63,939 nt of DNA, from positions 1 through 63,939 of the forward strand of contig SICL01000008.1 in NCBI GenBank assembly GCA_009691445.1, written 5' to 3'. Positions 4,609 through 37,499 of the stretch are shown here, piece after piece; within the stretch, counting starts at the first letter, position 1, and each line of letters opens with the position of its first letter. Position numbers and translations under genes: made by a program. The notes below the pieces were generated by a model. That model saw nothing but the letters and a program-made list of their open reading frames with translations, was not told the DNA's origin and did no database searches. This stretch comes from Candidatus Taenariivivens baikalensis (lineage in GTDB: Bacteria > Omnitrophota > Omnitrophia > Omnitrophales > Aquincolibacteriaceae).

Positions 4609-5931
4609 TTAAATCCAGCTCTTGAACCACATATGCTGGTTGAAAAAAGATTCGGAAATGGGAAAACCGGTCAGCAGTGGATACCAATAAAGGAACATTC
4701 CAAAAACGCAAAGAAGATAAATCAAAACTAATCGCGGGCCTTGGGGCTTCCACTCCCAAAGACGGTCCAAAAGCACAGCAATGGCCATCACGGCAAAGGG
4801 CAGTGCGGTATAAAAATAATGGAAGAAGGTCACACGCCGGACCGGAACCCACTGCAGCCACTCAGAAAAAAATCCAACCAGGATAAACGCAAAAAAACAG
4901 AACTGCGATTCTAGAGAAGGCCACCGACTTCTTTTTTTGAAAAATTGCACTCCGACAAATCCTATCCCCGCCGGGATCCCCCAGAAGATCAAAGGATTCC
5001 CAATGGAAAGAATCCCCTGCACCAGTTTTGGACCTGCCGTAGAAGCAGCCTCGTAATAATACCAAATCGGTCTTAGAAGAAACGGCCAGCCCCACCACTT
5101 CGAGGCATAAGTGTGTCCCGCCGTTAAATGTAGATGATAATCCACAAAATGCTTTTGCATCGCCCACAGGGATGAAAAGCCGTATCCCCGGATCGAAGGC
5201 AGAATCAGGAAAGGAATCCAATAAATAAGAAATGCCGGCAGGAATAAATAAAGAAATGTGTCCGTCAGAATGGGTCCCCTTTTGGCTGGCTGGCGCCACG
5301 CGAGAAGATAAGGCACAAGGAGCAGCGCAGGTGTGCTAAGCGCCACAATCCTTGTGGCAACGCCAAGCCCAAAACAAATCCCGGACCAGAAAAAAGCCCG
5401 GCGCCTTGTCCACACATCCAAAACCGAGTGTTGAAGGAGACAGTAAACTGAAAGCAGCATCCAGAAAAGCATGAAGGCATTGAGCATTCCGATCCTGGCC
5501 TGACTCATGGCCAGCCCGTCCAAAAAAAATAAAACTGCCGCAAAAAATGCGACGCGAGTCCGACGCCCCTCACCCTCCCCTCTCCCCGTGGGAGAGAGAC
5601 AGGGTGAGGGGACAAAAGCTTCTGTAATCTTGTAAATTAATGCAAGGCATCCGAATCCTGAAAAAAGAGACACGAGCCGCCAAACCCAGGAGAGATTGCC
5701 GAATAAAAAAATGAAAAGCGACATCAGCAGCATCGCAAGCGGGGGATGGGAAGTTTCTGTGTAGCCGCTTAATTGCAAAATTTGTTGCGCGGTTTTGACC
5801 TGATAGACTTCGTCGTAATGCATAGTAGGGGGGAATCCCAAGCGCGCCCCGTAAATGAGGAGATAAACTCCGCCAGCCAAAACCCAGCCCATGCAGGGAT
5901 ATTGTTTGAAAATTTTTACGATTAGACTCAC
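4609..5931 (-). CDS. Polytopic glycosyltransferase family 39 (PMT/ArnT-like, lipid-carrier dependent)
   Basis: 440-aa multi-TM ORF. The N-terminal HYDEVYQVKTAQQIL...ETSHPPLAMLL matches the DE...HPPL loop of PMT-family enzymes. It contains an in-frame GC-rich hairpin at 5566-5611. Confidence 0.7.
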   Translation of the reverse strand: MSLIVKIFKQYPCMGWVLAGGVYLLIYGARLGFPPTMHYDEVYQVKTAQQILQLSGYTETSHPPLAMLLMSLFIFLFGNLSWVWRLVSLFSGFGCLALIYKITEAFVPSPCLSPTGRGEGEGRRTRVAFFAAVLFFLDGLAMSQARIGMLNAFMLFWMLLSVYCLLQHSVLDVWTRRRAFFWSGICFGLGVATRIVALSTPALLLVPYLLAWRQPAKRGPILTDTFLYLFLPAFLIYWIPFLILPSIRGYGFSSLWAMQKHFVDYHLHLTAGHTYASKWWGWPFLLRPIWYYYEAASTAGPKLVQGILSIGNPLIFWGIPAGIGFVGVQFFKKRSRWPSLESQFCFFAFILVGFFSEWLQWVPVRRVTFFHYFYTALPFAVMAIAVLLDRLWEWKPQGPRLVLIYLLCVFGMFLYWYPLLTGFPISESFFNQHMWFKSWI

Positions 5932-9858: not shown

Positions 9859-10407
9859 TTATTGATAAAGTTCAGCATTCTTGAGGCGGGGATACTTCTG
9901 ATCTTTCTGCGAGAGGGTATAAGGGATTTTCAAATCCGGCCACGCGATCTTGAGATCAGGGTCATTCCATAAAACGCCGCGCTCGTGCTGAGGGGAATAA
10001 AGTTCGTTCACTTTATAGAGCACCTCGGTTCCGTCCTCCATCGTGCAGAAGCCGTGGGCAAACCCGGCTGGCACATAAAGCATTTTCTTATCTTGGGCAT
10101 TGAGCACGACACTGACCTGTTTTCCGAACGTGGGAGAACTTTTTCGGACATCCACCACCACGTCAAAAATTTCGCCGCGGACCACACGGATAAGTTTGGA
10201 TTGGGCCTTGGGAGGAAGCTGATAATGGAGCCCCCGGAGTACTCCCTTGGAGGAACAGCTGTGGTTATCCTGGATGAAACGTTCGGGAATCCCGTTTTGG
10301 TGAAAAAGGTCTTCGCGGTAACTTTCATAGAAAAATCCCCTCGGGTCGTCGAAAACTCGAGGTTCGATTAATATCACATCAGGAATTGATAGTCGTGTGA
10401 ATTTCAT
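9859..10407 (-). CDS. rfbC: dTDP-4-dehydrorhamnose 3,5-epimerase
   Basis: Contains RGFFYESY, RGLHYQ and YVPAGFAHGF; 182 aa. Confidence 0.93.
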   Translation of the reverse strand: MKFTRLSIPDVILIEPRVFDDPRGFFYESYREDLFHQNGIPERFIQDNHSCSSKGVLRGLHYQLPPKAQSKLIRVVRGEIFDVVVDVRKSSPTFGKQVSVVLNAQDKKMLYVPAGFAHGFCTMEDGTEVLYKVNELYSPQHERGVLWNDPDLKIAWPDLKIPYTLSQKDQKYPRLKNAELYQ

Positions 10408-10413
10408 ATTAAA

Positions 10414-10492
10414 TTGTCATCGCGAGTCCCGCCCAAAAGCGGGAAGTGGCGATCTGGGTTTTTAGATTGCTTCGCTTCGCTCGCAATGACAA
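10414..10492 (-). repeat. Miniature inverted-repeat element, GTCATTGCGAG family (sibling at 29254-29345)
   Basis: Termini ttgtcatcgcgag ... ctcgcaatgacaa. The internal gattgcttcgcttcgctcgcaatgac and gcgggactcgcg modules are shared with the 29254 copy. Confidence 0.75.
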
Positions 10493-10572
10493 GAGACGAA
10501 GGAGCCTCAGAATAACACTTCGTGTTACAAATCATTTCTTAAAAATCCAAGCTTCAGTATAATACACAACCC

Positions 10573-10974
10573 ATGAACGAAACAACCATCCAGCTTTTAC
10601 AATTTATGATCTGCCGGAACTTTCAAGGCACGGAGAAAGACGTGTATACGGCCGAGGGCATTCACAGCAATCTCTACGCCCCATTGTTCCCCCACCGCTT
10701 TGATACCGCACATGTGGTCACCTGCTGGCGCAAGGATCAACGCTTTCATAAGGAAGTGATTGAATACTGCACGGACTACGGAGAAACCATCCGCACCGCA
10801 CCCATGGACGTGGAACCTGTCACGAACTCCGTGCTGTTCCGCTGGCACAAGCACCACTTTCCTTCTGAACTCGTGATTGAAAAGCCCTGTCTTTTGACCA
10901 TCCGGGTGGTGCTGGACTGGAAAGTCCATTTCGAAAGCTATATCATGATTGAGGCGGCCCCGGAGTCTGCCTGA
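10573..10974 (+). CDS. Hypothetical protein
   Basis: 133-aa ORF of non-repetitive composition, and the only long + strand ORF in this region. Its 3' end overlaps the convergent response regulator by 32 nt. Confidence 0.45.
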   Translation: MNETTIQLLQFMICRNFQGTEKDVYTAEGIHSNLYAPLFPHRFDTAHVVTCWRKDQRFHKEVIEYCTDYGETIRTAPMDVEPVTNSVLFRWHKHHFPSELVIEKPCLLTIRVVLDWKVHFESYIMIEAAPESA

Positions 10975-11323
10975 AAAGTTTGTCCACTTCTTCCCAAAGC
11001 ACCATCAGATCAAACGGCTTTTGTAAAAAAACGTCTCGCCCCATTTTTGCGGCTTCATCAATAATAGCCTGATCGACATAGCCTGTATTGACAATCACTT
11101 TTGTGGCAGGAGAAATAGCCTTAGCGATCTGAAGAACATTCAGGCCGGACATATCAGGAAGTTTCATATCCAAAAGGAGCACATCGGGTCTGACTTGGCT
11201 GACAATCTGAATTCCTTCTTTGGCCGTATCCGCGGTAAAAACCTGATACCCTTCTTCCTCAAAAAATGATTTCACCTCGTCCGTGATACCGATTTCGTCA
11301 TCGACAATAAGAAGCGTTCTCAT
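10943..11323 (-). CDS. Single-domain response regulator (CheY-like receiver)
   Basis: Contains LLIVDDE, DVLLLDMKLPDMSG and KVIVNTGY; 126 aa. Confidence 0.9.
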   Translation of the reverse strand: MRTLLIVDDEIGITDEVKSFFEEEGYQVFTADTAKEGIQIVSQVRPDVLLLDMKLPDMSGLNVLQIAKAISPATKVIVNTGYVDQAIIDEAAKMGRDVFLQKPFDLMVLWEEVDKLFRQTPGPPQS

Positions 11324-11377
11324 TTATTTGTCCGCTGTTCTAGTTCGTCGCTCGTTGTTAAGTCCCAGTGATAATTT

Positions 11378-11461
11378 GAGATTGCTTCGCTCCACTCGCA
11401 ATGACGTCATTGTCCGCCACAATTCGTCGGATGGATCCGTCCTTCGGCGGAGAAGCAATCT
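11378..11461 (+). mobile_element. MITE-like element with GAGATTGCTTCG terminal inverted repeats (copy 1)
   Basis: gagattgcttcg...cgcaatgacgtcattg...tccgtccttcggcgga...gaagcaatct; siblings at 14278-14382 (inverted) and 33836-33907. Confidence 0.75.
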
Positions 11462-11490
11462 TCAGCTGTTTGAATTGATCAAACAAAGTT

Positions 11491-13023
11491 CTAATCCTGT
11501 TTTTGAAGAAGATGTTTGGCAACCGGCTCCGCATGAATCGGCAGAGTTAAAATAAACGTCGTTCCAACTCCTAAGGTGCTATTGACTCTAATCGTTCCGC
11601 CATGAAGCTCAATGATGTATTTACACATATAAAGCCCCATCCCTGATCCCTTACCTGGAGGCTTCGTCGTATAAGCGTAATTAAAAATCTTTTTCTGAAT
11701 CTCTTCCGTCATTCCCATCCCATTATCGGAAAAATGAACCGCAACAAACCCTTCTTCATCACTCGCCCGCTCAGCTTTAACTGTAATCTGCCGGTTACGC
11801 TTCCCCACCATCGCGTGGTAGGCGTTGATAAAGAGATTCAAAAAAACTTCCTGAAGCCGTTCCAGATCCCCGCGCACCAGAGGGATAGACTGCGGAATCT
11901 CAAACGCCACTTCGGTTCCGGTCAAGTTTTCCAGGTAAGTTTGAAACTGCACAAGCGGAAGAGTTTCTTCAAGCACCAGTTTGAGAGAAAGCGGCTCAAA
12001 CTTTCCCTTTTCTGATTTTTTGAGAAGACCCGTCAACGTATTCACCACGGCCTTGATACGCGAAATGTTTTGTTCCATTTTCTGGAACACATCCATAATG
12101 TCCGCCACTTTAAGGGTGGGATCCTTACGGAATTTCAAAATCGCCCGAGAGACATTCATAGAAAGAATCGTGAGCGGATTATTCACCTCATGCCCCACCG
12201 AAGCCGCGAGTCTGCCCAGGGTTGCCATTTTCTGCTCATGAATCAACTGTGCCTGCGCATCCTGAAGCTGCTTGTTGGCACGCTCGGTCTCCTGAAGAGC
12301 CTTGATAAGTTTGCTTTTGGAATACTCCAACTGATCATTGATGATCTTTAATTCATTTTTCTTTTGTTTAGTTTCATCAAACAAGTTAGCATTTTCAATG
12401 GCGACCGCGGCTTCCTGGGCCAAGTTATAAAAAAGCTCCCAATCATCCCGAGTATAACGCTGTTCTGATTTTTTCCTACCGAGGAAGAGAATGTTTTTAA
12501 GTTCGCTTCCAAAAAAACTGGGGATGGCGCAGACCGCGTCAAAGTCTTTCATGGTTTCAATCATGGTCCGGATTTTCGAGGCCCGCATATCCAGCTGTTT
12601 GGAAGGTGTGAGCTTCTGGTCGGCGACAAGTTGAACATCGAGAATCTGTTTTTTTTCATGGAGCCACTGAACCAACGGATGGTTGTCATCCATCTGATAT
12701 TCGAGAAAATTTTTCTCGTAGCCCCGCTGATTCGCAAGCCAGAAACCTTCCGCATCCTTGCGCCGCGTGAAAATCGCCACCTGCCGGATACCCACCCGAA
12801 AGGTCAGGAAATGCACCACCAGACTGAAAAGATGGGCAAGGTTTTCAATTTTAGACATACTACGGGACGCATCTTTGAGAAGCTTTTGGTAATCGGCATG
12901 TTTTTTCCTGGAAACGCGGGTCAGAATGGGCGTTAGCCATCGCCGGAGGAGCTCATAAACAGGAATCGTCAGAACAATTCCAAAGATAAAGGCCAGCATC
13001 TGAGAAAAACTCAACATGGTCAT
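11491..13023 (-). CDS. Sensor histidine kinase
   Basis: N-terminal TM, DHp box LAASVGHEVNNPL, and ATPase boxes DNGMGM and GSGMGLYMCKYIIELHGG. Confidence 0.9.
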   Translation of the reverse strand: MTMLSFSQMLAFIFGIVLTIPVYELLRRWLTPILTRVSRKKHADYQKLLKDASRSMSKIENLAHLFSLVVHFLTFRVGIRQVAIFTRRKDAEGFWLANQRGYEKNFLEYQMDDNHPLVQWLHEKKQILDVQLVADQKLTPSKQLDMRASKIRTMIETMKDFDAVCAIPSFFGSELKNILFLGRKKSEQRYTRDDWELFYNLAQEAAVAIENANLFDETKQKKNELKIINDQLEYSKSKLIKALQETERANKQLQDAQAQLIHEQKMATLGRLAASVGHEVNNPLTILSMNVSRAILKFRKDPTLKVADIMDVFQKMEQNISRIKAVVNTLTGLLKKSEKGKFEPLSLKLVLEETLPLVQFQTYLENLTGTEVAFEIPQSIPLVRGDLERLQEVFLNLFINAYHAMVGKRNRQITVKAERASDEEGFVAVHFSDNGMGMTEEIQKKIFNYAYTTKPPGKGSGMGLYMCKYIIELHGGTIRVNSTLGVGTTFILTLPIHAEPVAKHLLQKQD

Positions 13024-13040
13024 AGATTAAATCATGGCTC

Positions 13041-16000
13041 TTAAAGGATCAAGACGTTTTCTGATAAGGTAAACCGTAAAGTAAATACTGATCCCATTCC
13101 TTCTTCGGATCGAACCTCAACCTTGGCCTGGTGTTTCTGTAAAATGCTGTGACTGACGGCAAGTCCCAGCCCCGTTCCAGAGCCAACGTCTTTGGTTGTA
13201 AAAAAAGGATCGAAAATCCGGGTCAAATTTTCCTTTTTGATGCCGATTCCGTTATCCATAACATCGGCTTCAACCTCGTGATTCTTTCTTCTTAAAATAA
13301 TTTGTATTTGTCCGGCCCGTTTGGCAGATTTGACCGCATCCCGGGCATTCAAAATCAAATTGGTGAAAACCTGCTCCAATTCATTGGAAATCCCGTGAAT
13401 CGGATACGTTCCTTCCGAAGAAATCTGGACCTGAATATCATCTTGCGCCAGCTGATACTGCAACATCGAGACGGTACTCCGAACAACCTGGCCCAGATCA
13501 ACTTCTGTGAGCCCCTGCTCCTCTCCGGGCTGGCGGGCATACTTAAGCAGCTTCTGGATGATCACCTGGCATCGCTTGGCACCCTCTTCGATGAGGGAAA
13601 GCGTTTCAAGATCGTCCTCGGAACAGGGAGACATCTTGAGAATTTGAGCATTGGTCAAAACCGCCGTGAGCGGATTATTAATTTCATGAGCAACGCCTCC
13701 GGCAAGTGTACCGATGGTTGCCAGCTTTTCCGCCTGGATGAGCTGATCCTGGGTTTTGGCGAGTTCCTTGGTCCTCGTATCAACGATTTGCTCAAGCTCC
13801 TCATTCCAACGCTTGAGTTCGCGCGTCATTTTCCGGATCTTGATCAAGATCCCCACCCGCGCAATCAGTTCATCCTTATTGAACGGCTTGGAGATATAGT
13901 CATTGGCTCCGAGACTGAGACCGTGAATCTTGTCTCCCATATCCGTTTTAGCCGTCAGCATAATGACGGGAAGCTGATCCGAAGAGCGGCTCGCGCGTAC
14001 CTTTCGGCAAAATTCATAACCGGACATGCGGGGCATCATCAGATCAAGAATCACAAGATCCGGCTCACCCAATTTCATTTTTTCAAGCGCATCAATACCA
14101 TCCACCGCCTCAATCACCTCATATTGATGCATTTGAAGGCGCGTTTTTACCACTTCCCGGTTGATCGCATTGTCATCAACGATGAGGATTTTCTCTCCGT
14201 GACCCCGGACCGCTTCCTGAAATTCCGGATCTTTTTCCAAAGGAAGATGAGATTGAATCTGGACCGAAGTATTTGAAGAGATTGCTTCGTCGTCCTCTGG
14301 ACTCCTCGTCCGCCGGAGGACGGAGCCGTCCGACGAATTGTGGCTCGCAATGGCGTCATTGCGAGCGGAGCGAAGCAATCTCGAATTATCAGCAGGAATC
14401 CCCTCAGGATGCTTGGGCAGAAAAAAAGAAAAAGCGCTCCCCTTCTGAGGCGTACTCTGAACTTCAATCGAGCTCCCGTGAAGCTGAGCAATTTCCCGGG
14501 CAATGGAAAGTCCGAGCCCTGTGCCTTCATAGGTCCGGGTGGCACTTCCATCCGCCTGACGAAAACGCTCAAAGACAATTTTCTGATCCTCGGGAGAAAT
14601 TCCAATGCCGGTATCCGCCACACTGATCTTGAGCCGCGCTTCGTCCTCCTCCACTTTGATCGTCACACTTCCTTCGTGCGTAAACTTGATCGAATTTCCC
14701 GCAAGATTGATGAGGACCCGCTGGATTTTTTCCGGATCACCGTAAACATCCGAAAGCTGCGGCGGAGCAATCTTCTCGAACCGAAGTCCCTTTTTCTGCG
14801 CCACCCCGCCAAGCAGAGCTCTTACGGCATCAATCACATTCATGATGTTGAAGGCTTTGACTTTCAGCTCCATCTGGCCGGATTCCATCCGGGAAAGCTC
14901 AAGCAGGTTATTGATGAGTTCCTTGAGATTAGCTCCGCTTTCGATAATCATTTCAAGATGCTTTTTCTGAGATTCATTGACTGGTCCATCAGCTCCATCA
15001 ATCACCGATTCCACAAGGCCGAGGATTCCGTTCAGCGGTGTGCGAAGCTCGTGCGAGGTGTTGGCCAAAAACTCCGTCTTGAGACGATCCAGCTCTTTCA
15101 AGCGGTCGTTTTGAACCTGGACCTGCTCATAAAGTTTGTTTACATTTTCAAACTGGATGGAATTGGAAAATGCAATAGCAACCGGGAATTGGAGTTCCTT
15201 AAGAAATTGAATGTCGACCGGAGCATACCGCTTCAGATTCTCTTTTTTTCCCAAGTGAATCATTCCAATCATTTTTCCGCCAATGATCAAAGGCACGGCC
15301 ACTTGAGCCTCTTTCCCTAAAAAATACGCAAGAAACTCGTGTTTAAAAGCTTGGATTTCAGGATCTCCATCGGCCAGATCCGCCACAATCACTTCATTGC
15401 GCAATTCCGCCCACCGGACAACCGGATGATCTGCCGGGATGGGCTGAAGTCCTCGAATTCCCTTGGCGATTGCGGGGACAAACTGGCCGCTCGCCTCATC
15501 CCTGAGATAAATAGAAACCTTTCTCACATAAAGGGATTTCCTCAGCAGTCGGGGCAAGCGCTGCAAAAGACTGCGCAGGTCTTTCAGATAAACCAATTCC
15601 TGCGAAAATTCCGAAAGGGTATTTTTTAAATTAGCGCTTTGCCTTTGAAAAAAATAATCCAGGTACGGCTGGAGCACCTTGAAGTAAAAATAAAAGGCTA
15701 GGAGAAGCGATAAACTGTACGCGGTGGAAAAAAATCCGGGAAGCGTAGCCGTCCATCGCTGGGTTCCATAAATCAACCATGCAAAAGGCAGGACGGCAAT
15801 CACCGCAGTCATAAACCACATCAAGGTTTTATGGACTGCGGTCTCGATATCCATGGTCTTATATTTAATGATGGAATAGGCAACCACCGCAATCCAGAAG
15901 AAAACGTAGAGAAATCCCAAAGGATACAGCTCAAAACGGATGATCTTGGGCAGATAATCCAGCGAGGATAAAAAGGAAACAAGAAAAGCGATCGAGATCA

Positions 16001-16547
16001 GCTTGATTTGAGCCTGGGGAATCTTATGGGTTTGACTGCGGTAAGCGCGGATGAAATTATAAAAAGCAGCGAGAAAATAGCCGAAAAAGAAAACGAGGAA
16101 TACCTGATTGTAAACACCGTAAATCGGATAATACCCCCAAAAATATTTCTGCATTCCCGGAAAACTCCGGTCGGAAAAAAGACCCAGAAAATAAAAAAAG
16201 GCCGCACCTGCAAACCCGGCTCCAATTATCTTTTTCCTCACGGCCCCCAACTCCAGCCAAACTTCGGAAAAGAAATACACCAGAGGCGAAATCAATACTA
16301 CGCCCAAAAAAGCGACCCTGCGGTAAATGACGAGGGCTAACTCCGGATTTTTGACCGAATAGACTCCAAACAAGCCAAAAAGCCAGAAAAGGATTGCTAC
16401 GCAAAGAAGAAAAAATGAAAGATTGACGATGGACTTACGGTTCTGGAGATAGATGTAAAATCCGGTCAAAAAAATCAGAACAGCAACGGGGAGAAGGGGT
16501 AAGGCGTAGATATTCAGCGAAATGAAACTTAAGACATTATCCGCCAT
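13041..16547 (-). CDS. Hybrid sensor histidine kinase with an N-terminal polytopic domain, two kinase cores and an internal receiver
   Basis: About 7 N-terminal TM helices. First core: HisKA SHELRTPLNGILG plus HATPase GTGLGLSIAREIAQLHGS. Receiver: ILIVDDNAINRE...DLVILDLMMPRMSG...MLTAK. Second core: DHp LAGGVAHEINNPL plus HATPase DNGIGI...GTGLGLAVSHSIL. Confidence 0.9.
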   Translation of the reverse strand: MADNVLSFISLNIYALPLLPVAVLIFLTGFYIYLQNRKSIVNLSFFLLCVAILFWLFGLFGVYSVKNPELALVIYRRVAFLGVVLISPLVYFFSEVWLELGAVRKKIIGAGFAGAAFFYFLGLFSDRSFPGMQKYFWGYYPIYGVYNQVFLVFFFGYFLAAFYNFIRAYRSQTHKIPQAQIKLISIAFLVSFLSSLDYLPKIIRFELYPLGFLYVFFWIAVVAYSIIKYKTMDIETAVHKTLMWFMTAVIAVLPFAWLIYGTQRWTATLPGFFSTAYSLSLLLAFYFYFKVLQPYLDYFFQRQSANLKNTLSEFSQELVYLKDLRSLLQRLPRLLRKSLYVRKVSIYLRDEASGQFVPAIAKGIRGLQPIPADHPVVRWAELRNEVIVADLADGDPEIQAFKHEFLAYFLGKEAQVAVPLIIGGKMIGMIHLGKKENLKRYAPVDIQFLKELQFPVAIAFSNSIQFENVNKLYEQVQVQNDRLKELDRLKTEFLANTSHELRTPLNGILGLVESVIDGADGPVNESQKKHLEMIIESGANLKELINNLLELSRMESGQMELKVKAFNIMNVIDAVRALLGGVAQKKGLRFEKIAPPQLSDVYGDPEKIQRVLINLAGNSIKFTHEGSVTIKVEEDEARLKISVADTGIGISPEDQKIVFERFRQADGSATRTYEGTGLGLSIAREIAQLHGSSIEVQSTPQKGSAFSFFLPKHPEGIPADNSRLLRSARNDAIASHNSSDGSVLRRTRSPEDDEAISSNTSVQIQSHLPLEKDPEFQEAVRGHGEKILIVDDNAINREVVKTRLQMHQYEVIEAVDGIDALEKMKLGEPDLVILDLMMPRMSGYEFCRKVRASRSSDQLPVIMLTAKTDMGDKIHGLSLGANDYISKPFNKDELIARVGILIKIRKMTRELKRWNEELEQIVDTRTKELAKTQDQLIQAEKLATIGTLAGGVAHEINNPLTAVLTNAQILKMSPCSEDDLETLSLIEEGAKRCQVIIQKLLKYARQPGEEQGLTEVDLGQVVRSTVSMLQYQLAQDDIQVQISSEGTYPIHGISNELEQVFTNLILNARDAVKSAKRAGQIQIILRRKNHEVEADVMDNGIGIKKENLTRIFDPFFTTKDVGSGTGLGLAVSHSILQKHQAKVEVRSEEGMGSVFTLRFTLSENVLIL
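14278..14382 (-). mobile_element. MITE-like element (copy 2) inserted in frame inside the hybrid kinase CDS
   Basis: 105 nt (35 codons) bounded by gagattgcttcg / cgaagcaatctc. It translates as RLLRSARNDAIASHNSSDGSVLRRTRSPEDDEAIS between the first HATPase domain and the receiver. Confidence 0.8.
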
Positions 16548-20701: not shown

Positions 20702-21187
20702 CTATCCTCCTACAAAAACCCATACAATAGTGACTGGAATATTATCGCGGTTGGTTTGAAAAACCATGGTAGGACCTACTTGGCTATTAATTCTCTCAAC
20801 CCTGATGGGTAATCCCTGATTAAATTCGTCATTGCGAAGGGGCTCAGCGACCGACGCAATCCCGGACTGAGATTGTCCGCCACTAAATCTTCGGACGAAT
20901 CCGCCGTGCTCTTTGGTGGACTGCGTTTCACTCGCAATGACATTTTTTAAAGGTTGAGGATAAATATAAGCTAAACGAGGCGGCACCAAGGATTGAAACA
21001 AGAAAAAGATAGCGGCCAGCATTATCGCGGGTAACAAAAAAACAGGTTGGAATCCCCAAAATGGCTCCGGACGGAAATGGGCGGCAAGAAAATCTTTTTT
21101 TCTACTGCGGACCACAGAATCATGAACGGCTTCGTCCAGATAACCCCGGTAAGATTTCAGTACATCGTCGATGCGGCGGTTTTTCAT
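20702..21187 (-). CDS. Putative anti-sigma factor (single-pass membrane protein)
   Basis: 4-nt overlap with the upstream ECF sigma gene and one TM (FLLPAIMLAAIFFLF). It contains a partial ctcgcaatgac repeat translated as VIASETQS. Confidence 0.55.
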   Translation of the reverse strand: MKNRRIDDVLKSYRGYLDEAVHDSVVRSRKKDFLAAHFRPEPFWGFQPVFLLPAIMLAAIFFLFQSLVPPRLAYIYPQPLKNVIASETQSTKEHGGFVRRFSGGQSQSGIASVAEPLRNDEFNQGLPIRVERINSQVGPTMVFQTNRDNIPVTIVWVFVGG

Positions 21188-27006: not shown

Positions 27007-28102
27007 AAAAAAGGTGTTTGATTCTCGCGATTACATCCAGATTAACGACATCATTATAAATAATAAAAACCATAAGCGCCAGAAGGAGTGCAAAGCCCAC
27101 CTGGGTTGCCTTATCCTGAACCTCCAGGCTCACAGTCTTGCGGCGGAAAGCTTCCACCAAAAGAAACATCAAATGACCGCCGTCCAGCGCCGGAATGGGA
27201 AGCAGATTGATCACTGCCAAAGAAACACTCAGCGTCGCCATCAGCTGAAGCACATAAGGAAGCCCCATCCGCGCAGCATCTCCGGTCATGGAAATAATCC
27301 CGATCGGTCCGGACATGGATTTAAAGGACATCTTTCCCGTCGCCACAAGAAAAAGTGCCCGATAGGTATTCACGGCAAGCTGGATCACCGTCTGTGCCGC
27401 ATGCTTGAGCGAAACCTGTAAACTGTAGCGTTCAAAAATCGCCGAGGCGGGATAAGGCGAAATACCAAGGCGCTTCACGCGAATGGATGTTCCAAAAGGA
27501 TCTTTGACCTCTTCGGATTTCAAATTGATTTCAATCGGCAGAAGCTCTCCGGAACGCTCAATCGTAAGCTTTGCCGCATCCTGAGGCGAGGCGTCCAGCG
27601 CCCGCGTGAGATCAAAAAAAGTCTGAACTTTTTTTCCGTTCACTTCCACGATTTTATCTTTTTTCATCAGGCCGCTTGTTTCCGCGGGATACCCTTTCAC
27701 AAATCCGCCGATGACCGTGCCCGGAACAGGACGGCCCATCATGAAAAGAAAAGAGAAAAGGAAGAATGCCAGAATATAATTCATAATCACGCCGGCACTC
27801 ACGATGAAAATGCGCGCACCCAGCGAAGCCGCCAGATAATCGCCAGGTTTAAGGCCTTCCTTGGAATCGACTTCACTGATGGATTCTCCGGCCGGCTTCA
27901 CAAAACCTCCCAGAGGAAAAAGAGAAATCGTGTAACGGGTTTCCTTTCCTTGCCAGTGGAGAATCTCAGGCCCGAATCCAATCGAGAACTTTTCCACCCT
28001 CACCTTAAAAAGACGGCAGGCCAGAAAATGGCCGAACTCGTGGATCACAATCAGCACTCCCAGCACAATCATGGTGGGGAAAATCGAATAAAAAAAACTC
28101 AT
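27005..28102 (-). CDS. rseP: RIP zinc metalloprotease RseP (site-2 protease, M50)
   Basis: HEFGHFL, a PDZ-like middle region and NLLPIPALDGGH. The ATG at 28102 forms an ATGA overlap with the dxr stop. Confidence 0.9.
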   Translation of the reverse strand: MSFFYSIFPTMIVLGVLIVIHEFGHFLACRLFKVRVEKFSIGFGPEILHWQGKETRYTISLFPLGGFVKPAGESISEVDSKEGLKPGDYLAASLGARIFIVSAGVIMNYILAFFLFSFLFMMGRPVPGTVIGGFVKGYPAETSGLMKKDKIVEVNGKKVQTFFDLTRALDASPQDAAKLTIERSGELLPIEINLKSEEVKDPFGTSIRVKRLGISPYPASAIFERYSLQVSLKHAAQTVIQLAVNTYRALFLVATGKMSFKSMSGPIGIISMTGDAARMGLPYVLQLMATLSVSLAVINLLPIPALDGGHLMFLLVEAFRRKTVSLEVQDKATQVGFALLLALMVFIIYNDVVNLDVIARIKHLF

Positions 28103-29241
28103 AACTGCTCCTTGGCTTGTTCCCGGGCCCAAAGATCACTCTGGATCAAATCCTGAAGTCCGGGATTAGAAATAAGTCGGTGTTTTTTCATCACATTTTC
28201 AATGATGCTCGGGATCTTCAAAAAAGAGATCTCTTCTTTTAAAAAAGCTTCGACCGCTACTTCATTCGCGGCATTGAGCACCGCCGGAAGGCTTCCACCC
28301 TTTTGGCTTGCCTCATACCCGAGATCAAGACAGGGAAAACGTTTCCGGTCAGGTCGTTCAAAATGAAAGCGGTGAAGCGCAACAAGATCCAGCGTAGGAA
28401 GATGGTTCATCAAACGCGCAGGATAAGTGAGCGCATACTGGATGGGAAGACGCATATCGGTGATCGCGAGATTCGCAAGATGTGTTCCGTCGACAAATTC
28501 CACCATCGCGTGAATGACCGCTTCGGGATGCACCAGCACTTCGATTTTGTCCGGATGAAACCCAAATAGATTGGCGGCTTCAATCACTTCCAAACCTTTG
28601 TTCATTAATGTTGCGGAGTCAATCGTAATCTTAGCACCCATTTTCCACTTCGGATGATTCAAGGCCTGCTTGGGCGTCACGCGAGTGAGCGATCCTTTCT
28701 TTTTATGGAAAGGGCCGCCGGAAGAAGTCAGAATCAGTTTCTTGACCATATCCACGCGCTGTCCTTCAAGGCACTGCCATAATCCCGAATGCTCGCTGTC
28801 AATTGGAAGAATCTTGACTCCTGTTTTTTTCGCTTCTTCGACCAAAAGCTTCCCTGCAATCACGAGAGGCTCTTTGTTCGCGATTGCCAAATCCTTTTTA
28901 GCTTTGAGCGCCGCAAAAATCGGAGCAAGGCCAACGGCACCGACGAGAGCGAAAACAACCTTCTGAACACCGGCAAGCGTACTGACTTCGCAAAGCCCTT
29001 CATCACCCGTGACCACCCGGATCTTTAAAGAGCGGAGTTCTTTTTGGACTTTAGCCGCGCTTTCAGGGTTATAAATACAAACGACTTCGGGACGAAATTC
29101 CCGCGCCTGAGCGATCAAATCATCGATGCTTTTTTTTGCCGCAAGCGCCAAAACACGGAATTTGTCAGGATGAGTTCTGACAATCCGTAATGTATTGATC
29201 CCGATCGAACCCGTGGATCCTAATATTGAAATGTTGATCAT
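28099..29241 (-). CDS. dxr: 1-deoxy-D-xylulose 5-phosphate reductoisomerase
   Basis: MINISILGSTGSIG, IDSEHS and NKGLEVIEA. The track's N-terminal extension (MLCSLRSLAMT) is a translated repeat element. Confidence 0.93.
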   Translation of the reverse strand: MINISILGSTGSIGINTLRIVRTHPDKFRVLALAAKKSIDDLIAQAREFRPEVVCIYNPESAAKVQKELRSLKIRVVTGDEGLCEVSTLAGVQKVVFALVGAVGLAPIFAALKAKKDLAIANKEPLVIAGKLLVEEAKKTGVKILPIDSEHSGLWQCLEGQRVDMVKKLILTSSGGPFHKKKGSLTRVTPKQALNHPKWKMGAKITIDSATLMNKGLEVIEAANLFGFHPDKIEVLVHPEAVIHAMVEFVDGTHLANLAITDMRLPIQYALTYPARLMNHLPTLDLVALHRFHFERPDRKRFPCLDLGYEASQKGGSLPAVLNAANEVAVEAFLKEEISFLKIPSIIENVMKKHRLISNPGLQDLIQSDLWAREQAKEQL

Positions 29242-29253
29242 AGTTTGTTTGAC

Positions 29254-29345
29254 CGTCATTGCGAGCGACCGGAGGGAGCAAAGCAATCTCGGGTTATGCC
29301 CCGGGATTGCCGCGTCTCCGCCAAAGCGCGGGACTCGCAGTGATA
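29254..29345 (+). repeat. Miniature inverted-repeat element, GTCATTGCGAG family
   Basis: cgtcattgcgagcga...gcaatctc...gcgggactcgcagtgataa is collinear with the reverse complement of 10414-10492. Confidence 0.75.
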
Positions 29346-29354
29346 ACGTACCAA

Positions 29355-30158
29355 TTAATGAGCCGACTGAAATCCAAGAAAAAATACGACGTAATAATAC
29401 ACAAAAGGGACCGTCAAGAGGAGACTATCCATAATATCAAGCACCCCGCCCAGACCGGGAATCACCCCTGAGTCCTTCACGCCCACGTCCCGCTTCATCA
29501 AGCTCTCCACCAGATCTCCGATCTGGGCAATCACGCTCACCAGAATGCCTAGAATAAAAAGATGCCCCCAGAAAACATTCTTGAGATAAAAACCCGAAAG
29601 CAGAGAAAGCACCAAGGTTGTGGCTAGACCGCCCCAGGCTCCTTCGATCGATTTATTGGGGCTAATATGCTTAGCAAGTTTTGAAGTTCCGTATTTCGTA
29701 CCCACAAAATAGGCGCCCGCATCTCCGGCCTTTACCAACAGAATCGTATAAAAAACCCACGACGATCCGTGAATGAGGTCGTGCATTTTAATGAGATGGG
29801 AAAAAAACCAGACCACGTAGACCAGGCCAAAGGTCATCATAGAGACCGAACCAAACACCTGTGAATTCAAATCCTCACGAAAATAAAGCACAAAGACAAG
29901 CAGAATGCCCAGCACAAAAAGCACCGGCTCCGCGCCCCAATTCGTCAAAATCGGAATCAGGACAGCCAGCGTCATCGCAAGAAGCTTGTGAACCACCACT
30001 CCTTTTTTCTCGATCAGAGCCAGAAACTCATGAAAGCCAACCAGACAAAAGGCCTCAACCACGAGAATAAAAATCCAGCGGGGTGCGGCAAAGATAGTCA
30101 AGAGAGCCAGCGCCACAAACAAGGAAGAAAATGTGAGTCGTTTAACCAGAGTCGTCAT
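29355..30158 (-). CDS. cdsA: Phosphatidate cytidylyltransferase
   Basis: Polytopic, with C-terminal SLMKRDVGVKDSGVIPGLGGVLD; conserved uppS-cdsA-dxr-rseP order. Confidence 0.9.
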   Translation of the reverse strand: MTTLVKRLTFSSLFVALALLTIFAAPRWIFILVVEAFCLVGFHEFLALIEKKGVVVHKLLAMTLAVLIPILTNWGAEPVLFVLGILLVFVLYFREDLNSQVFGSVSMMTFGLVYVVWFFSHLIKMHDLIHGSSWVFYTILLVKAGDAGAYFVGTKYGTSKLAKHISPNKSIEGAWGGLATTLVLSLLSGFYLKNVFWGHLFILGILVSVIAQIGDLVESLMKRDVGVKDSGVIPGLGGVLDIMDSLLLTVPFVYYYVVFFLGFQSAH

Positions 30159-30896: not shown

Positions 30897-32171
30897 TTAT
30901 AGGAAGATCGTCTGGGAGCGTTTGCTCCCTACGGAAACGATTTTGATTGGGGTTTCGAGAAGTCGTTCAAGCCGTTGCAGGTACCGGCGCGCATTCACCG
31001 GAAGATCTTTCCAGCGAGTGGCACTTGAGATATCCTCTTTCCATCCCGGCATGGATTCATAAATGGGCTTGCATCGGGAGAACTCATCCGTGGAGGTAGG
31101 ATAATCTTTCAGGATTTTTCCACCCAAACGGTAACCCGTCGCGATTTTCACTTCCGGAAGTCCGGAAAGAACATCAAGCTTCATCACCACCATTTCATTA
31201 AGTCCATTAATACGGACTGCGTGTTTGGTAATCACGCCGTCAAACCATCCACAGCGGCGCGGACGGCCGGTCGTGGAGCCGTATTCGTTTCCCTGTTTTT
31301 GAATCTGTTCCATCAGCTTGGGAGGAAACTGGGTGGGAAAAGGACCTTCGCCGACACGAGTCGTGTAGGCTTTCACCACACCAATGACGCGGTCAATTAA
31401 GGTCGGGCTTACTCCAGAGCCGGTGATCGCTCCTCCCACAGAGGCATTGGATGAAGTCACAAAGGGATAGGTTCCGTGATCCACATCCAGCATGGTTCCC
31501 TGAGCTCCTTCAAAGAGAAGATTTTTTTTCTTTTTGGACGCTTCATAAAGATAATTGGAAGTGCTGATGGAGAACTGAAGAAGCCGCTTGCGGATTTTCA
31601 GAAGGCCGGAATAAATTTCATCAAAGGAAAGGCCGGGATGATTATAGAGTTTACGAAGCGCCTGATTCTTTTCCTCCAGAACAACCCCTAAACGGACTTT
31701 GAGAGAATTCACATTTCTTAAATCCGCCACCCGGATTCCAAGCCGCGCCATTTTATCCGCATAACAGGGACCGATTCCCCGCTTCGTGGTTCCGATTTTG
31801 TGGTCCTGATGCGAATTTTCTTCCTTCAATTGATCGAGCAGGCGGTGATAAGGAAGCAAAAGATGCGCAGCATCGGAAACGAAAAGTCTTCCGTCTACTT
31901 TAATGCCTTTTCCGTGAAGCATTTTAACTTCCTCAAAAAAGGCTTCGGGATCCAGCACCACGCCGTTTCCGATCACACAGATTTTCTTCGGATGAAGAAT
32001 GCCGGAGGGAATCAGATGAAGGACATAAGTTTGATTTTCAATCTTGACGGTGTGACCGGCATTATTGCCGCCCTGATAGCGGACAATGATATCGCTTTTC
32101 TCCGCCAGAATATCAATGATCTTCCCTTTGCCTTCATCTCCCCAGTGCGCTCCGATAATAATATGGTTCAT
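30897..32171 (-). CDS. purA: Adenylosuccinate synthase
   Basis: Contains GAHWGDEGKGKIID, GGNNAGHT, TTKRGIGPCY and GTTGRPRRCGW. Confidence 0.95.
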   Translation of the reverse strand: MNHIIIGAHWGDEGKGKIIDILAEKSDIIVRYQGGNNAGHTVKIENQTYVLHLIPSGILHPKKICVIGNGVVLDPEAFFEEVKMLHGKGIKVDGRLFVSDAAHLLLPYHRLLDQLKEENSHQDHKIGTTKRGIGPCYADKMARLGIRVADLRNVNSLKVRLGVVLEEKNQALRKLYNHPGLSFDEIYSGLLKIRKRLLQFSISTSNYLYEASKKKKNLLFEGAQGTMLDVDHGTYPFVTSSNASVGGAITGSGVSPTLIDRVIGVVKAYTTRVGEGPFPTQFPPKLMEQIQKQGNEYGSTTGRPRRCGWFDGVITKHAVRINGLNEMVVMKLDVLSGLPEVKIATGYRLGGKILKDYPTSTDEFSRCKPIYESMPGWKEDISSATRWKDLPVNARRYLQRLERLLETPIKIVSVGSKRSQTIFL

Positions 32172-33766
32172 AATTTCACGACTTTGGCATCAAGAATTGG
32201 AGAAAATTTCTTGATCTCCTTAAGCACTGACGCGGAAACATCGTTATCCGTCATGATCACCGTCATCGCCATCGTCTTGGATCCTTTTTTGATGCGGCCC
32301 AAAGACATTTCAGCGATATTGATGTGATTGTCGCCAAGAATCCTTCCGAGATTACCAACCACACCGGGCCTGTCCTCATTATGGATGAAAAGAGCAATGC
32401 CTTCCGGAGCCATCTCCAAGCGAAACTCGTTCACTCGCACAATGCGTGGAAACTGTTCACCAAAAAGCGCGCCCATAATCCGGTTGGGTCCGGACTTGGA
32501 CGACTTCTCATCATTAACAATCACTTCGATATAATTAGTGAAATCTTCTTTTTCCGTGCTTCGATTTTCATTCACAGCCATTCCGCGTTCCTGGGCAATG
32601 GCCGGGGCATTCACAAAGTTAACCGTCTCTCCGCAAATGGGCGTCAAAAGGCCCTTGAGCATCGCAATGGTAAGCGGTTTGAGATTGTATTTCGTGAGCA
32701 CGCCCCCGTAACGCACGGTGACAGTTTGAATTCCGCCGCCGAAAAGTTGGGAATAAAGCATCCCAATTTTTTCCGAAAGCGTAATCCAGGGCTTAAGAAC
32801 ACTATAAGTTTCAGGATCCAGATTCGGAAGATTAACCGCGTTTTTGATCGCACGTTCATGAAGGGCATCGAGCACCTGCTTGACGACATCGATGGCCACA
32901 TTTTCTTGGGCTTCCTGAGTGGCCGCTCCCAAATGTGGAGTGGAAATTACCTGTGGAAGTTCCAAGAGAGGATTATTCACGGGCGGTTCGTCTTCAAACA
33001 CATCGAGCGCCGCGCCGGAAACTTTCCCGGATTTAATAGCTTCGTAAAGCGCCTTCTCTTCAATAATACCGCCACGAGCACAGTTAATAACCTTAACACC
33101 CGTTTTACACAGCTTGAATGTTTCAGCGTTTAAAATATATTTAGTTTCAGGCGTAAGCGGGGTGTGGACCGTAATAAAGTCCGCAATCTTGAGCAATGAT
33201 TTAAGTTCCAGAAAATCCACTGGGAAATCCTTAATACTGTCCTTGGTCACAAAAGGATCAAAGATCACTACTTTCATCCCAAAAGCAATGGCTCGCTTCA
33301 TAACTTCGCGGCCAATGCGGCCAAAACCAATTACGGCAAGCGTTTTTCCGTGGAGTTCTGTTCCAAGAAATTTATGGCGATCCCATTCCCCCTGGCGCAT
33401 GGATTGATTAGCCTGAGGAATATTACGAGCCAGCGACATCAGCATCGAAAACGTGTGCTCAGCCGTAGAGATCGTATTGCCTTCGGGCGTATTCATCACA
33501 ATAATACCCTTGGCCGTGGCCGTCTCAAGATGCACATTGTCCACACCGACGCCCGCGCGCCCAATCACGCGCAGTTTTTTAGCTGCGGTCAAAATATCTT
33601 TGGTCAGTTTAGTGCCGCTTCGAATAATAATGGCCTCATAATCACCAATAATCTTCTTCAGCTGCTCCGGAGGAAGCCCTGTTTTTTCCTCCACAACGAA
33701 ATCTTTTTCTTTTTTAAGCTCATCCATTCCGGCTTTACCCAGAGGATCGCTCACAAGAATTTTCAT
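32168..33766 (-). CDS. serA: D-3-phosphoglycerate dehydrogenase with a C-terminal ACT domain
   Basis: MKILVSDPL..., GFGRIGREV, and a C-terminal ACT-like region. The ATG at 33766 is preferred; the upstream extension runs toward a repeat element. Confidence 0.9.
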   Translation of the reverse strand: MKILVSDPLGKAGMDELKKEKDFVVEEKTGLPPEQLKKIIGDYEAIIIRSGTKLTKDILTAAKKLRVIGRAGVGVDNVHLETATAKGIIVMNTPEGNTISTAEHTFSMLMSLARNIPQANQSMRQGEWDRHKFLGTELHGKTLAVIGFGRIGREVMKRAIAFGMKVVIFDPFVTKDSIKDFPVDFLELKSLLKIADFITVHTPLTPETKYILNAETFKLCKTGVKVINCARGGIIEEKALYEAIKSGKVSGAALDVFEDEPPVNNPLLELPQVISTPHLGAATQEAQENVAIDVVKQVLDALHERAIKNAVNLPNLDPETYSVLKPWITLSEKIGMLYSQLFGGGIQTVTVRYGGVLTKYNLKPLTIAMLKGLLTPICGETVNFVNAPAIAQERGMAVNENRSTEKEDFTNYIEVIVNDEKSSKSGPNRIMGALFGEQFPRIVRVNEFRLEMAPEGIALFIHNEDRPGVVGNLGRILGDNHINIAEMSLGRIKKGSKTMAMTVIMTDNDVSASVLKEIKKFSPILDAKVVKL

Positions 33767-33835
33767 TTTCTTTGCTTTTTTTTCCACAAAAAACCTTTTT
33801 GACTTGGCTTTAGATAATACTTCTAAGGATTGGCC

Positions 33836-33907
33836 GAGATTGCTTAGCTTCGCCCGCAATGACATCATTGCGAGGAACCCACCGAAGGTAGGAGACGAAT
33901 CAATCTC
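33836..33907 (+). mobile_element. MITE-like element with GAGATTGCTT terminal inverted repeats (copy 3)
   Basis: gagattgcttagcttcgcccgcaatgacatcattgcgag...gacgaatcaatctc lies between clpP and serA. Confidence 0.7.
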
Positions 33908-33915: not shown

Positions 33916-34515
33916 TTATTTCTTGATATCGCCGCGACTGGCAACGACATGATCAACGATACCATAAGCCCGCGCTTCTTCTGCGCTCATAAAGTAGTCA
34001 CGGTCCGTGTCTTTTTTGACTTTCTCCAGCGGCTGGCCCGTATGCTTGGCAATCATCCCGTTCAGCTGGTCTTTCATTTTCAAAATTTCCTGAGCCTGAA
34101 TCTGGATATCAGAAGCCGTCCCCTGAGCGCCGCCCCAAGGTTGATGAATCATCACCCTGGAATTCGGAAGAGAGTAGCGTTTCCCCTTGGTTCCCACCAT
34201 CAGCAGCATCGCCCCCATACTGGCCGCCTGTCCCACGCAGTAAGTGGCAATGTCGCATTTCACGAACTGCAGCGTGTCATAAATAGCAAGCCCGGCCGTC
34301 ACCGAACCACCTGGAGAGTTCACGTAGACATTAATATCTTTGGCTGAATCTTCCATTTGAAGAAAGAGAATCTGCGCAATAATGATATTGGCAATCTGAT
34401 CATCAATCGGCGTTCCGATAAAAACAATCCGGTCCTTCATTAAACGGGAATAAATATCGTAGGATCTTTCACCTCTTCCTGTCTGCTCAACCACAATCGG
34501 AACTAAGTAACTCAT
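33916..34515 (-). CDS. clpP: ATP-dependent Clp protease proteolytic subunit
   Basis: [33 protein letters not shown] and MIHQP. The ATG at 34515 follows agggggtttt; the longer track ORF overlaps tig. Confidence 0.93.
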
Positions 34516-34531
34516 AAAACCCCCTGCTTTT

Positions 34532-35800
34532 TCATTTTGTTTTTGCGTTCGTTTTAAGATATTGAATGGCTTTTTCGCTTCGAATCTGTTCTTCCAGTGA
34601 ATGACGGGCGTCGTGATTTTCGGTGTAATATTTACGAACCAGATCCGCTTCCTGATGGACCTGGGCCGCCACATCCTGATAGCGCTTCTCGAAATCCTCT
34701 TCCAAAGCTGCCAGGTTTTCTTTTGTCGAGATTTCATCTAAAAGAAAAGCAATATGCACCTGACGCTTGGCTTCGTCTTCCAGATCCTTTCGCAGCTCCT
34801 TGGTCATCTCTTCCAATTTTTCTTTGGGAAATCCACTGCGTTCATAGTGCGCCAAGGCATCCTTCACCAGGTATTCAAGCCGGCGTGCCACCATGCCTTC
34901 GGGAAGCGAGATCTTGTTTTGTTTGATCAGTTCATCCAGAAGCGCTTTTTCATAGGACGCTTCGGCCTGCTTTTCTTTGGCAGCCAGAATTTCATGACGG
35001 ATCTTTTCCTTAAGCGCCGCAAGCGAATCAAAATTTCCGGCTCCTTTGGCAAGATCATCATTCATTTCAGGAAGGATTTCTTCTTTGAGTTCCTTCACCT
35101 TGACGGAAAAAACTGCGGGCTTTCCCGCGTATTCCTTTTTCCAGAAATTTTCCGGCAGTGTCACCGAAATGTCTTTTTCATCGCCGGATTTTGCGCCGGT
35201 CAGGCTTTTTGCAAAACCTTTGATGTATTCCTCTTCCTTTACCTGCACCCAGTCTTCGTCGCGCTGATCCACGACGGCTTCACCGGATTTGCAGACATAC
35301 TCAATGACCACATAGTCATTTTCGCGCGCCTCGCGGTCCTCAATAGTTTTGTACTGGGCCTGGGCTTTTTGAACACGTTTCAGGGATTCCTCGATTTCCT
35401 CCGGCTTGACCACCGTCGGCTCTTTTTTAACCTGCAGTCCCGTTACTTTGGAGAGCTTGATCTTGGGACGGACTTCAATCTGAGCGCGGTAAACAAGTTT
35501 TTCCTCAGAAAAATCCACTTCATCAATCTGGGGATATCCGATCGGTTCGATGGCCTCTTCTTTGATGGCTTCGCGGTAAGAGTCGGAGATGAGCTGATTG
35601 AGGACATTTTTTTTGGCTTCATCCTGATAATGCATCATCAGGACCGAGCGCGGGGCTTTGCCCGGACGAAATCCGGGGATTTTGGCTTTAGCAGAAATCG
35701 AGCTGTAAAACGACTCATACTCCCGCTTGACATCACTAGGATCAAGTTCAATTTTGAGAATTTTTTCGCAGGCTTTTCCGTCTTTGACTTTCACTTTCAA
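34532..35800 (-). CDS. tig: Trigger factor
   Basis: 422 aa, N-terminal GFRPGKAP motif, tig-clpP synteny. Confidence 0.9.
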
Positions 35801-37118: not shown

Positions 37119-37128
37119 AATCCCTTTT

Positions 37129-37373: not shown

Positions 37374-37378
37374 AAAAC

Positions 37379-37422: not shown

Positions 37423-37499
37423 CCCGCCCACCTGCCTCAGGTGGGACGGGTCCGTCCTTCCGCTTTGCGGAAGGCGGAACTTGCTTACCAAAAAATAGA

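Follow-up and report, generated by a model that had tools for sequence, protein, structure and literature searches.

A REP-like pair of hairpin units, probably a tolerated insertion, encodes part of the inter-domain linker of a hybrid histidine kinase in Candidatus Taenariivivens baikalensis

RESULTS AND DISCUSSION

A pair of hairpin units lies in frame in a hybrid histidine kinase gene

In a 63,939-nt stretch of Candidatus Taenariivivens baikalensis contig SICL01000008.1 (hereafter the window), a 105-nt element lies in frame inside a gene for a hybrid histidine kinase (Table 1). We consider it probable that the element is a head-to-head (HH) pair of hairpin units, which resembles repetitive extragenic palindromic (REP) sequences, belongs to a repeat family associated with GIY-YIG nucleases, and is tolerated as a passenger in a disordered linker. 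The host open reading frame (ORF) encodes 1168 residues, among which the element, read on the minus strand, specifies residues 723-757 (RLLRSARNDAIASHNSSDGSVLRRTRSPEDDEAIS). Pfam assigns HisKA_7TM to residues 21-234 of the kinase, GAF to 323-460, HisKA to 490-557, HATPase_c to 603-712, and Response_reg to 787-898, followed by a second kinase core that extends to about residue 1150. The element therefore occupies exactly 35 codons between the first HATPase domain and the receiver, in agreement with a first-pass annotation of the window. That annotation had also equated the element with the linker; the element does lie inside the linker, but it makes up about half of the inter-domain stretch of ~74 residues, not all of it.

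The element is bounded by GAGATTGCTTCG (14278-14289) and its exact reverse complement CGAAGCAATCTC (14371-14382), and this 12/12 inverted repeat bears out the 105-nt span flanked by terminal inverted repeats (TIRs) that had been described before. The exact 12-mer has three matches in the window (11378+, 14278+, and 14371-), while with at most two mismatches it has 21, compared with 9.0 ± 3.1 in shuffled sequences. Both units follow one plan: the head, (C)GTC, is oriented, the basal stem pairs ATTGC with GCAAT and encloses the internal loop GAG...CGAA, the top varies, and a C stands 3' of the palindrome. Unit A, on the plus strand, reads GTC-ATTGC-GAG-CGGAG-CGAA-GCAAT-CTC (28 nt) with a C in front of it. 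Unit B keeps the GAG/CGAA and ATTGC/GCAAT parts and carries a 54-nt insert at the loop position; units of this long-loop type are also found at 11406-11461 and 20869-20941. Judging from the blastn comparison given in Table 1, the insert is specific to the source genome. Because the composite is built head to head, the 12-nt "TIRs" are the tails of the two units. The earlier label of a miniature TIR element thus holds for the inverted repeat but not for a MITE (miniature inverted-repeat transposable element) with TIRs and target-site duplications. The edge of the copied segment on the 14383-14391 side is uncertain, since similarity to the copy at 11378 reaches 9 nt past the TIR and the boundary there is not sharp.

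As mRNA, the element folds into a long hairpin of -56.8 kcal/mol (z = -5.8), and as DNA it folds to -33.9 kcal/mol (z = -4.8). Its GC content is 62%, compared with 47% for the rest of the host gene; another 105-nt stretch of the gene reaches 63%, so the GC contrast lends weak support to an insertion.

The kinase is, from its sequence and structural model, most likely still functional. The phospho-acceptor residues His499, Asp835, and His954 are invariant across the orthologue alignment, as are residues of the ATP-binding motifs (e.g. N614, G647, and G649). In an AlphaFold model built with a 20-sequence alignment (mean pLDDT 75), pLDDT is 80-90 in the flanking domains and below 50 at residues 722-769. 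The open 1168-codon ORF, the conserved catalytic residues, and the folded flanking domains of the model uphold the proposal that a repetitive or mobile element became part of an inter-domain linker without breaking the gene, whereas the alternative offered alongside it, a gene freshly disrupted but still open, seems unlikely, with nothing to support it. The element itself is open in five of its six reading frames, so that about a quarter of random insertions would leave the gene open. Terminator prediction gives no site at this position.

The segment is absent from orthologues and from a syntenic relative

An alignment with orthologues had been proposed together with the first-pass annotation. 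In 19 full-length orthologues of the same architecture (52-61% identity), the linkers are hypervariable and the 35-residue segment is found in none. The stretch corresponding to query residues 695-800 comprises 106 residues here and 79-97 in the orthologues; the linker is therefore longer by about 10-25 residues, not by 35, pointing to an ancestral linker that either was short or has since lost a part. In L201 (GCA_964460795.1), an element-free syntenic relative at about 60% protein identity rather than a true empty-site allele, the gene order is the same (cyclase/dehydrogenase-like gene, hybrid kinase, second kinase, response regulator, and rmlC). No units occur in 19.4 kb of the syntenic L201 sequence, and both the site in the kinase gene and the site at 11378 are empty. 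In particular, the second kinase (HK2) and response-regulator genes of L201 overlap by 4 nt, whereas the window has a 167-nt spacer there with a sibling pair. The kinase gene of a further locus, L202, also contains no units. The lack of the segment in the orthologues and in syntenic L201 supports insertion rather than ancestry, and we favour a reading in which a hypervariable linker has tolerated the insertion.

These comparisons also bear on two other possibilities, that the gene has recently become a pseudogene or that the repeat led to a misassembled junction. Repeats do cause misjoins in metagenome assemblies, and an intragenic insertion is usually harmful. However, both flanks are collinear with one orthologous protein in one frame, the gene order is that of L201, and the 1168-codon ORF is open, with invariant catalytic residues and confidently modelled domains, making such an origin very improbable.

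The hairpin unit belongs to a family found across phyla

We searched GTDB representatives, one genome per species, for the family pattern AGATTGCTTCG-N(2-14)-CTCGCAATGAC and obtained at least 120 stretches. The matches listed span Chloroflexota, Bacteroidota (Pedobacter, Flavobacterium, and Hymenobacter), Patescibacteria, Omnitrophota, Planctomycetota, Desulfobacterota, Alpha- and Gammaproteobacteria, Bacillota, and others. The 28-mer of unit A recurs with 100% identity in Hymenobacter rigui (L041), a Dehalococcoidia metagenome-assembled genome (MAG; L068), and Anaerolinea thermophila (L069). Unit interiors range from 3 nt to GC-rich perfect stems, and GC-rich upper stems are found in the Chloroflexus copies. 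In one Chloroflexus sp. locus (L004, 1372-1870), a 35-nt unit with a GC-rich stem forms a tandem direct array with near-identical spacers of ~15 nt, which looks superficially like a CRISPR. No Rfam family covers the unit, either in the window and 18 diverse loci at gathering thresholds or in 10350-14450 at E up to 10, and literature matches to its DNA strings and encoded peptides are primer coincidences only.

A test of the upper stem on all interiors gave a weak signal (2.2 versus 1.5 pairs), with many subclasses having purine-rich loops and not stems, and a covariation test of the basal stem was used in its place. Internal stem variants are largely compensated in the tail (21 compensated versus 2 not for ATCGC, 11 versus 1 for ACTGC, and 7 versus 2 for ATTCC), amounting to 39 versus 5 for these three commonest variants, with 1.9% in a random control. 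The compensation indicates that the hairpin is under selection. With respect to orientation, a sample of pairs from other genomes comprises 95 tail-to-tail (TT), 35 head-to-tail (HT), and 17 HH pairs.

The reach of the family bears on a further explanation, in which the segment is native linker sequence and its likeness to intergenic repeats arose by chance or by copying out of the gene. A linker can drift freely, and the 9-nt similarity past the TIR shows that flanking sequence was copied along with the element. Against this, the 28-nt unit recurs unchanged in unrelated phyla, its large family is linked to GIY-YIG genes, and no orthologue has it, and we regard a native origin as extremely improbable.

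Units flank genes for small GIY-YIG nucleases

In a motif-first test, consisting of an all-against-all comparison of ORFs from the 120 motif-selected loci listed, five loci have a gene of 89-96 codons with PF01541 as its only domain directly between two units, at ~10-20 nt from the unit on each side. The other ORF families common to the 120 loci are ordinary paralogues (ABC ATPases and sensor kinases), and no transposase family common to the neighbours of these loci emerged. In a protein-first test, 80 metagenome loci were picked by similarity to the GIY-YIG protein alone, and 77 were usable. Here, GTCATTGCGAG with at most one mismatch occurs within 200 nt of the GIY-YIG gene in 58 of the 77 loci, and on both sides of it in 46. 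The density of heads is 5.56/kb near the gene, 0.40/kb at more than 500 nt from it (a 14-fold difference), and 0.016/kb in shuffled sequences. Upstream units aim at the gene in a ratio of 62:21 and downstream units aim back at it in a ratio of 62:31, so that the heads face outward from the gene.

The unit-flanked nucleases form a very large family of proteins, typically 95 residues long, whose members are 70-80% identical across phyla, and their nearest solved structures are the UPF0213 proteins 1ZG2 and 1YWL. No sequence link to Neisseria SsnA was made, the homologue list being filled by closer relatives. Membership of the unit in the Ssn-type or CGTC-type hairpin repeats is a putative assignment by architecture. 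At one locus (L022), a 116-bp direct repeat that is 99% identical (4877-4992 and 5436-5551) surrounds a unit-unit-GIY-YIG-unit cassette, which may be a long target duplication or an assembly artefact.

The window has a GIY-YIG gene of its own (Table 1). Its last ~12 codons overlap tRNA-Lys (37498-37573), and a CGTC-tagged mini-hairpin (GTCCTCGCAAAAGCGAGAC) lies just upstream of it, at 37822-37840. The product is a possible candidate for a nuclease acting in trans.

The gene neighbourhoods speak to whether the kinase element is a classical MITE, that is, a deletion derivative of an insertion sequence (IS) with a DDE transposase, moved by cut and paste through 12-bp TIRs. The 12/12 terminal inverted repeat, the small size, and the several copies in the window are all what a MITE would present. 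However, no target-site duplication is found at the three HH copies, whose flanks have no direct repeat in common, and what looks like a TIR is a unit's tail, the unit itself being found also singly, in tail-to-tail pairs, and in tandem arrays. Furthermore, the exact unit is common to several phyla, and the only small gene family that recurs between units in the 120 loci listed is the GIY-YIG nuclease, not a transposase. A MITE origin is thus highly unlikely.

Other copies in the window and units inside other genes

Besides the kinase element, the window contains two zero-gap HH pairs, three TT pairs (Table 1), and solo unit remnants; heads occur at 0.19/kb, ~12 times the shuffled rate. The closest sibling, 2.8 kb away, had been described as inverted and about 21 nt shorter, and this proved accurate: 11369-11460 is 86% complementary to 14300-14391 over 92 nt, with 21 nt absent from the sibling. 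The longest perfect match between the two copies is 16 nt. Inversion between the siblings was considered and rejected, as such a match is too short for efficient homologous recombination. The other proposed sibling, at 33836-33907, does have a short unit, a second head, and tails in common with the kinase element. In the adjacent serA-like ORF as listed, the catalytic domain begins at residue 37 according to Pfam, which makes a position of the pair 5' of the true start most likely.

All six pairs, the intergenic ones included, are multiples of three in length as delimited (75, 84, 105, 114, 90, and 72 nt), the copy at 11378 being 85 nt if its last tail base is counted. Divisibility by three was rejected as a property of the family, given this arguable boundary and the absence of bias in 87 and 42 distinct TT pairs from other genomes (p = 0.38 and 0.61). 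We treat the pattern in the window as coincidence together with selection on the intragenic copies.

One of the TT pairs lies in frame in ORF 20702-21187, which encodes a conserved, anti-sigma-like membrane protein of 161 residues downstream of a gene for an extracytoplasmic function (ECF) sigma factor. Four homologues keep both ends of this protein; two of them have repeat-encoded peptides at the same position (VIASEAKQS...IAS...PRNDE), and in the other two the repeat is decayed. In orthologues at 55-64% identity, a pair, either canonical or decayed, occupies the same codon position, and the DNA of the L203 homologue contains a clean 63-nt pair (979-1041) that starts at the same codon as the pair in the window. 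The more distant L201 orthologue has no pair. With a pair at the same codon in orthologues and none in distant L201, either the insertion is old or the site has been hit repeatedly.

Units in an open frame are also present in the GATase domain of guaA (L030), a PfkB kinase of an Omnitrophica MAG (L054), and a PD-(D/E)XK nuclease (L023). In HsdS (L110) they lie between the two target-recognition domains, and in L059 between two glycosyltransferase modules.

Table 1. Positions of the kinase element, its parts, and related features in the window
Feature	Position	Strand	Remarks
Hybrid histidine kinase host gene	13041..16547	-	HisKA_7TM, GAF, HisKA, HATPase_c, linker, REC, HisKA, HATPase_c
Whole element, zero-gap HH pair of hairpin units	14278..14382		105 nt = 35 codons
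Unit A, canonical short unit GTCATTGCGAG-CGGAG-CGAAGCAATCTC, preceded by C (CGTC head)	14355..14382	+	sequence
Unit B, long unit: degenerate head GCCATTGCGAG (GCC), 54-nt loop insert, tail CGAAGCAATCTC	14278..14354	-	sequence
54-nt loop insert of unit B	14290..14343		elsewhere only at the 11378 sibling (blastn against all loci collected)
Nine nucleotides past the tail, GAATTATCA (TGATAATTY)	14383..14391		common to the 11378 sibling
Closest sibling, HH pair, inverted orientation	11378..11461		intergenic, between HK2 gene 11491-13023 and response-regulator gene 10943-11323, same operon
Sibling HH pair	33836..33907		between clpP-like 33916-34737 and serA-like 32168-33868
TT pair	10416..10490		first unit with compensated stem ATCGC/GCGAT
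TT pair in frame in ORF 20702-21187 (minus strand)	20828..20941		114 nt = 38 codons
TT pair, second unit degenerate	29255..29344		between dxr-like 28099-29286 and cdsA-like 29355-30158
Only GIY-YIG gene of the window, 90 aa, single domain PF01541	37535..37807	-	found by profile search

Relation to known repeats

The closest known system is that of the Ssn nucleases (Chenal et al. 2025, Nat Commun 16:2388; PMC11893778). In that study, a single-domain GIY-YIG Ssn protein of ~94 residues (cd10448) binds the Neisseria repeat (NTS) CGTCATTCCCGCG..CGCGGGAATC only as single-stranded DNA (ssDNA); Ssn nucleases cut a few nucleotides upstream of the repeat, and ssn genes are flanked by Ssn-related motifs (SRMs) in an IS-like arrangement. 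The loop of the Neisseria repeat can be replaced or extended, and 2% of NTS copies lie inside genes, in-frame coding copies not being described (PMC11893778). Our units share with SRM and NTS repeats an inverted repeat of 20-50 nt able to form an oriented hairpin (here with the basal stem ATTGC/GCAAT), a (C)GTC head, a stem starting with AT, a C 3' of the palindrome, hundreds of copies per genome in many phyla, and a loop that accepts insertions, as in unit B. They also bracket a single-domain GIY-YIG gene of ~94 codons in an IS-like manner, an arrangement found in other genomes, with no bracketed gene in the window. In contrast, the stem here is ATTGC/GCAAT with a GAG/CGAA internal loop, whereas the Neisseria stem is ATTCCCGCG. 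The published SRM pattern matches one of the 77 protein-selected loci, compared with 58 for the motif used here. The unit would thus appear to be an Ssn-type hairpin repeat of a class that the published pattern does not capture.

CGTC-tagged REPs have a CGTC head and an AT-initiated stem, form dimers, and occur in several phyla (Di Nocera, De Gregorio, Rocco 2013, BMC Genomics 14:522; PMC3733652). They have no dedicated transposase, their intragenic copies encode 20-30 residues, one such copy lies in a histidine kinase of Sphingomonas wittichii, and the Rickettsia repeats RPE-4 and RPE-6 are of the CGTC type (PMC3733652). The units described here are similar in their unpaired head (CGTC, TGTC, or CCTC in those REPs and CGTC in unit A), AT-starting stem, inverted dimers, lack of an associated transposase, and intragenic copies. 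They differ from the four families of CGTC-tagged REPs, which have a perfect stem of 8-9 bp, a loop of 4-5 nt, and a CCA tail, in having a 5-bp basal stem, a GAG/CGAA internal loop, a top of 3 to >50 nt, and a CTC tail. Furthermore, dimers of CGTC-tagged REPs are mostly HH, whereas those of the present class are mainly TT in our sample.

Rickettsia palindromic elements (RPEs), described by Ogata and colleagues in 2000 and 2002, reportedly lie in frame in protein-coding genes that stay functional. The kinase element behaves likewise, being an in-frame palindromic repeat in a conserved gene and absent from orthologues; RPEs differ in sequence and host clade, RPE-1 is longer (100-150 bp), and the likeness is one of behaviour and not of sequence comparison. 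Compared with the REPIN/RAYT system (Bertels and Rainey 2011; PMC3337134), the replicating entity again seems to be an inverted pair of units, the composite being present here in three copies in 64 kb, but a GTAG head and a Y1 (IS200/IS605-like) transposase there are replaced by a GTC head and a GIY-YIG nuclease here. Bacterial MITEs (e.g. Correia/NEMIS and Nezha) are likewise small and multicopy, encode no transposase, have terminal inverted repeats, and are occasionally in frame in genes; in contrast to them, the present element has no target-site duplication and no DDE-transposase parent, and its ends are autonomous hairpin units.

How the element may have reached the linker

Zero-gap HH pairs number three in the window, and the 305 heads from other genomes yield none, making the composite of a short and a long unit genome-specific. 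We propose that this composite would have landed in, or been copied into, the linker between the first kinase core and the receiver. By analogy with REPINs, it seems to have been copied as a whole, and its spread would require that an Ssn-like GIY-YIG nuclease act on the hairpin in its ssDNA form. The insertion could have survived through a length that is a multiple of three, the use of a stop-free frame, and a linker tolerant of arbitrary hydrophilic sequence, which would make the element a passenger and the source of about half of the present linker.

Several points weigh against this proposal. Unit A and three consensus forms fail the SRM pattern HGTCWYN(0-2)YYVSBRHN(0-5)WNVSBRGN(0-2)RNCYNB, which the NTS and NTSvar controls pass, and the Ssn-like (cd10448) label on the flanking nucleases is a putative one, given by their architecture. 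In the window, tblastn finds no unit-flanked ssn gene, and the protein encoded at 37535-37807, with just 27% identity to the unit-flanked nucleases, falls in another subfamily, and its gene lacks a bracket of ATTGC units. The zero-gap HH arrangement itself, missing from the outside sample, has inward-facing heads, and the movement of a pair built in this way is not readily accounted for by the published cut position. As for the insertion, taking away the 35 residues would give the kinase a shorter linker than any orthologue has. The gain is undated, as the closest orthologue is at 61% identity, and loss in the other lineages could formally explain the absence as well.

A different view of the same copy is that it is kept for a function, whether as a hairpin in the mRNA with an effect on translation or processing at the junction of the sensor-kinase half and the REC-kinase half, as an ssDNA nuclease target that limits recombination across the gene, or as an inversion substrate together with its sibling. 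The very stable mRNA fold and the inverted sibling in the same operon would fit such a role, as would homologues of ~730 residues that match only the N-terminal 60% of the query, with no receiver-domain match. NTS repeats modulate transformation in Neisseria (PMC11893778), and the pair in ORF 20702-21187 stays canonical in orthologues of 55-64% identity. However, the element has no terminator-like site and no Rfam match, SsnA does not bind RNA (PMC11893778), the perfect match between the siblings is short, and the kinase orthologues function without the segment. We consider a retained function unlikely and favour the tolerated hairpin pair.

In-frame palindromic repeats are already known from Rickettsia RPEs and from REPs, and the pairing of repeat and nuclease was published in 2025. 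What is new here is modest, namely a cross-phylum repeat class missed by the published SRM pattern and a coding copy retained in orthologues. The kinase would exemplify how multidomain signalling proteins gain coding sequence from selfish hairpin repeats at the least harmful place, with a partial natural control, and it ties the old observation of intragenic repeats (RPEs and REPs) to the recently characterised Ssn nucleases. Because the SRM pattern misses a large cross-phylum class, counts of Ssn/repeat pairs, and with them the pool of candidate ssDNA-cutting specificities, are likely underestimated. In predicted proteins, the peptides RLLRSARND, VIASEAKQS, and HCERSEAIS can serve as annotation flags for these repeats.

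A broader idea, which we offer tentatively and hold to be possible but rather doubtful, is that the ATTGC hairpin and the 95-residue GIY-YIG protein make up a horizontally spreading, IS-like selfish element missed by the SRM pattern, and that its gene-less pairs are a recurrent raw material for linkers, the window presenting one recent case (the kinase) and one old case (the anti-sigma-like protein). If this is true, either the hairpin inside the coding region would be under selection or a single site would have been targeted or converted repeatedly.

Other features of the window

A number of further repeats were also observed, several of them at tRNA genes. A copy of the 3' half of tRNA-Lys, from the anticodon arm to the acceptor end (37373-37444 versus 37494-37565), lies ~120 nt downstream of the intact gene and may be the scar of an old integration or a tRNA gene that has decayed. 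For tRNA-Phe, an identical copy of 38 nt from the 5' part (42861-42898 and 47535-47572) is found 4.7 kb from the gene, with an ORF of 1089 codons (43500-46769) in between, and looks like a direct repeat of a tRNA fragment around an inserted segment. A tandem repeat at 38088-38801, in which a unit of 102 nt (34 codons) is present in no fewer than six copies at 64-75% identity, probably encodes a repeat-domain protein. Finally, short repeats of another family (ATTGCGGATTTCGGATT / AATCCGCAAT), with no relation to the hairpin units, cluster by tRNA genes at 37124-37214, 37341-37373, 47582-47647, and 51481-51513.

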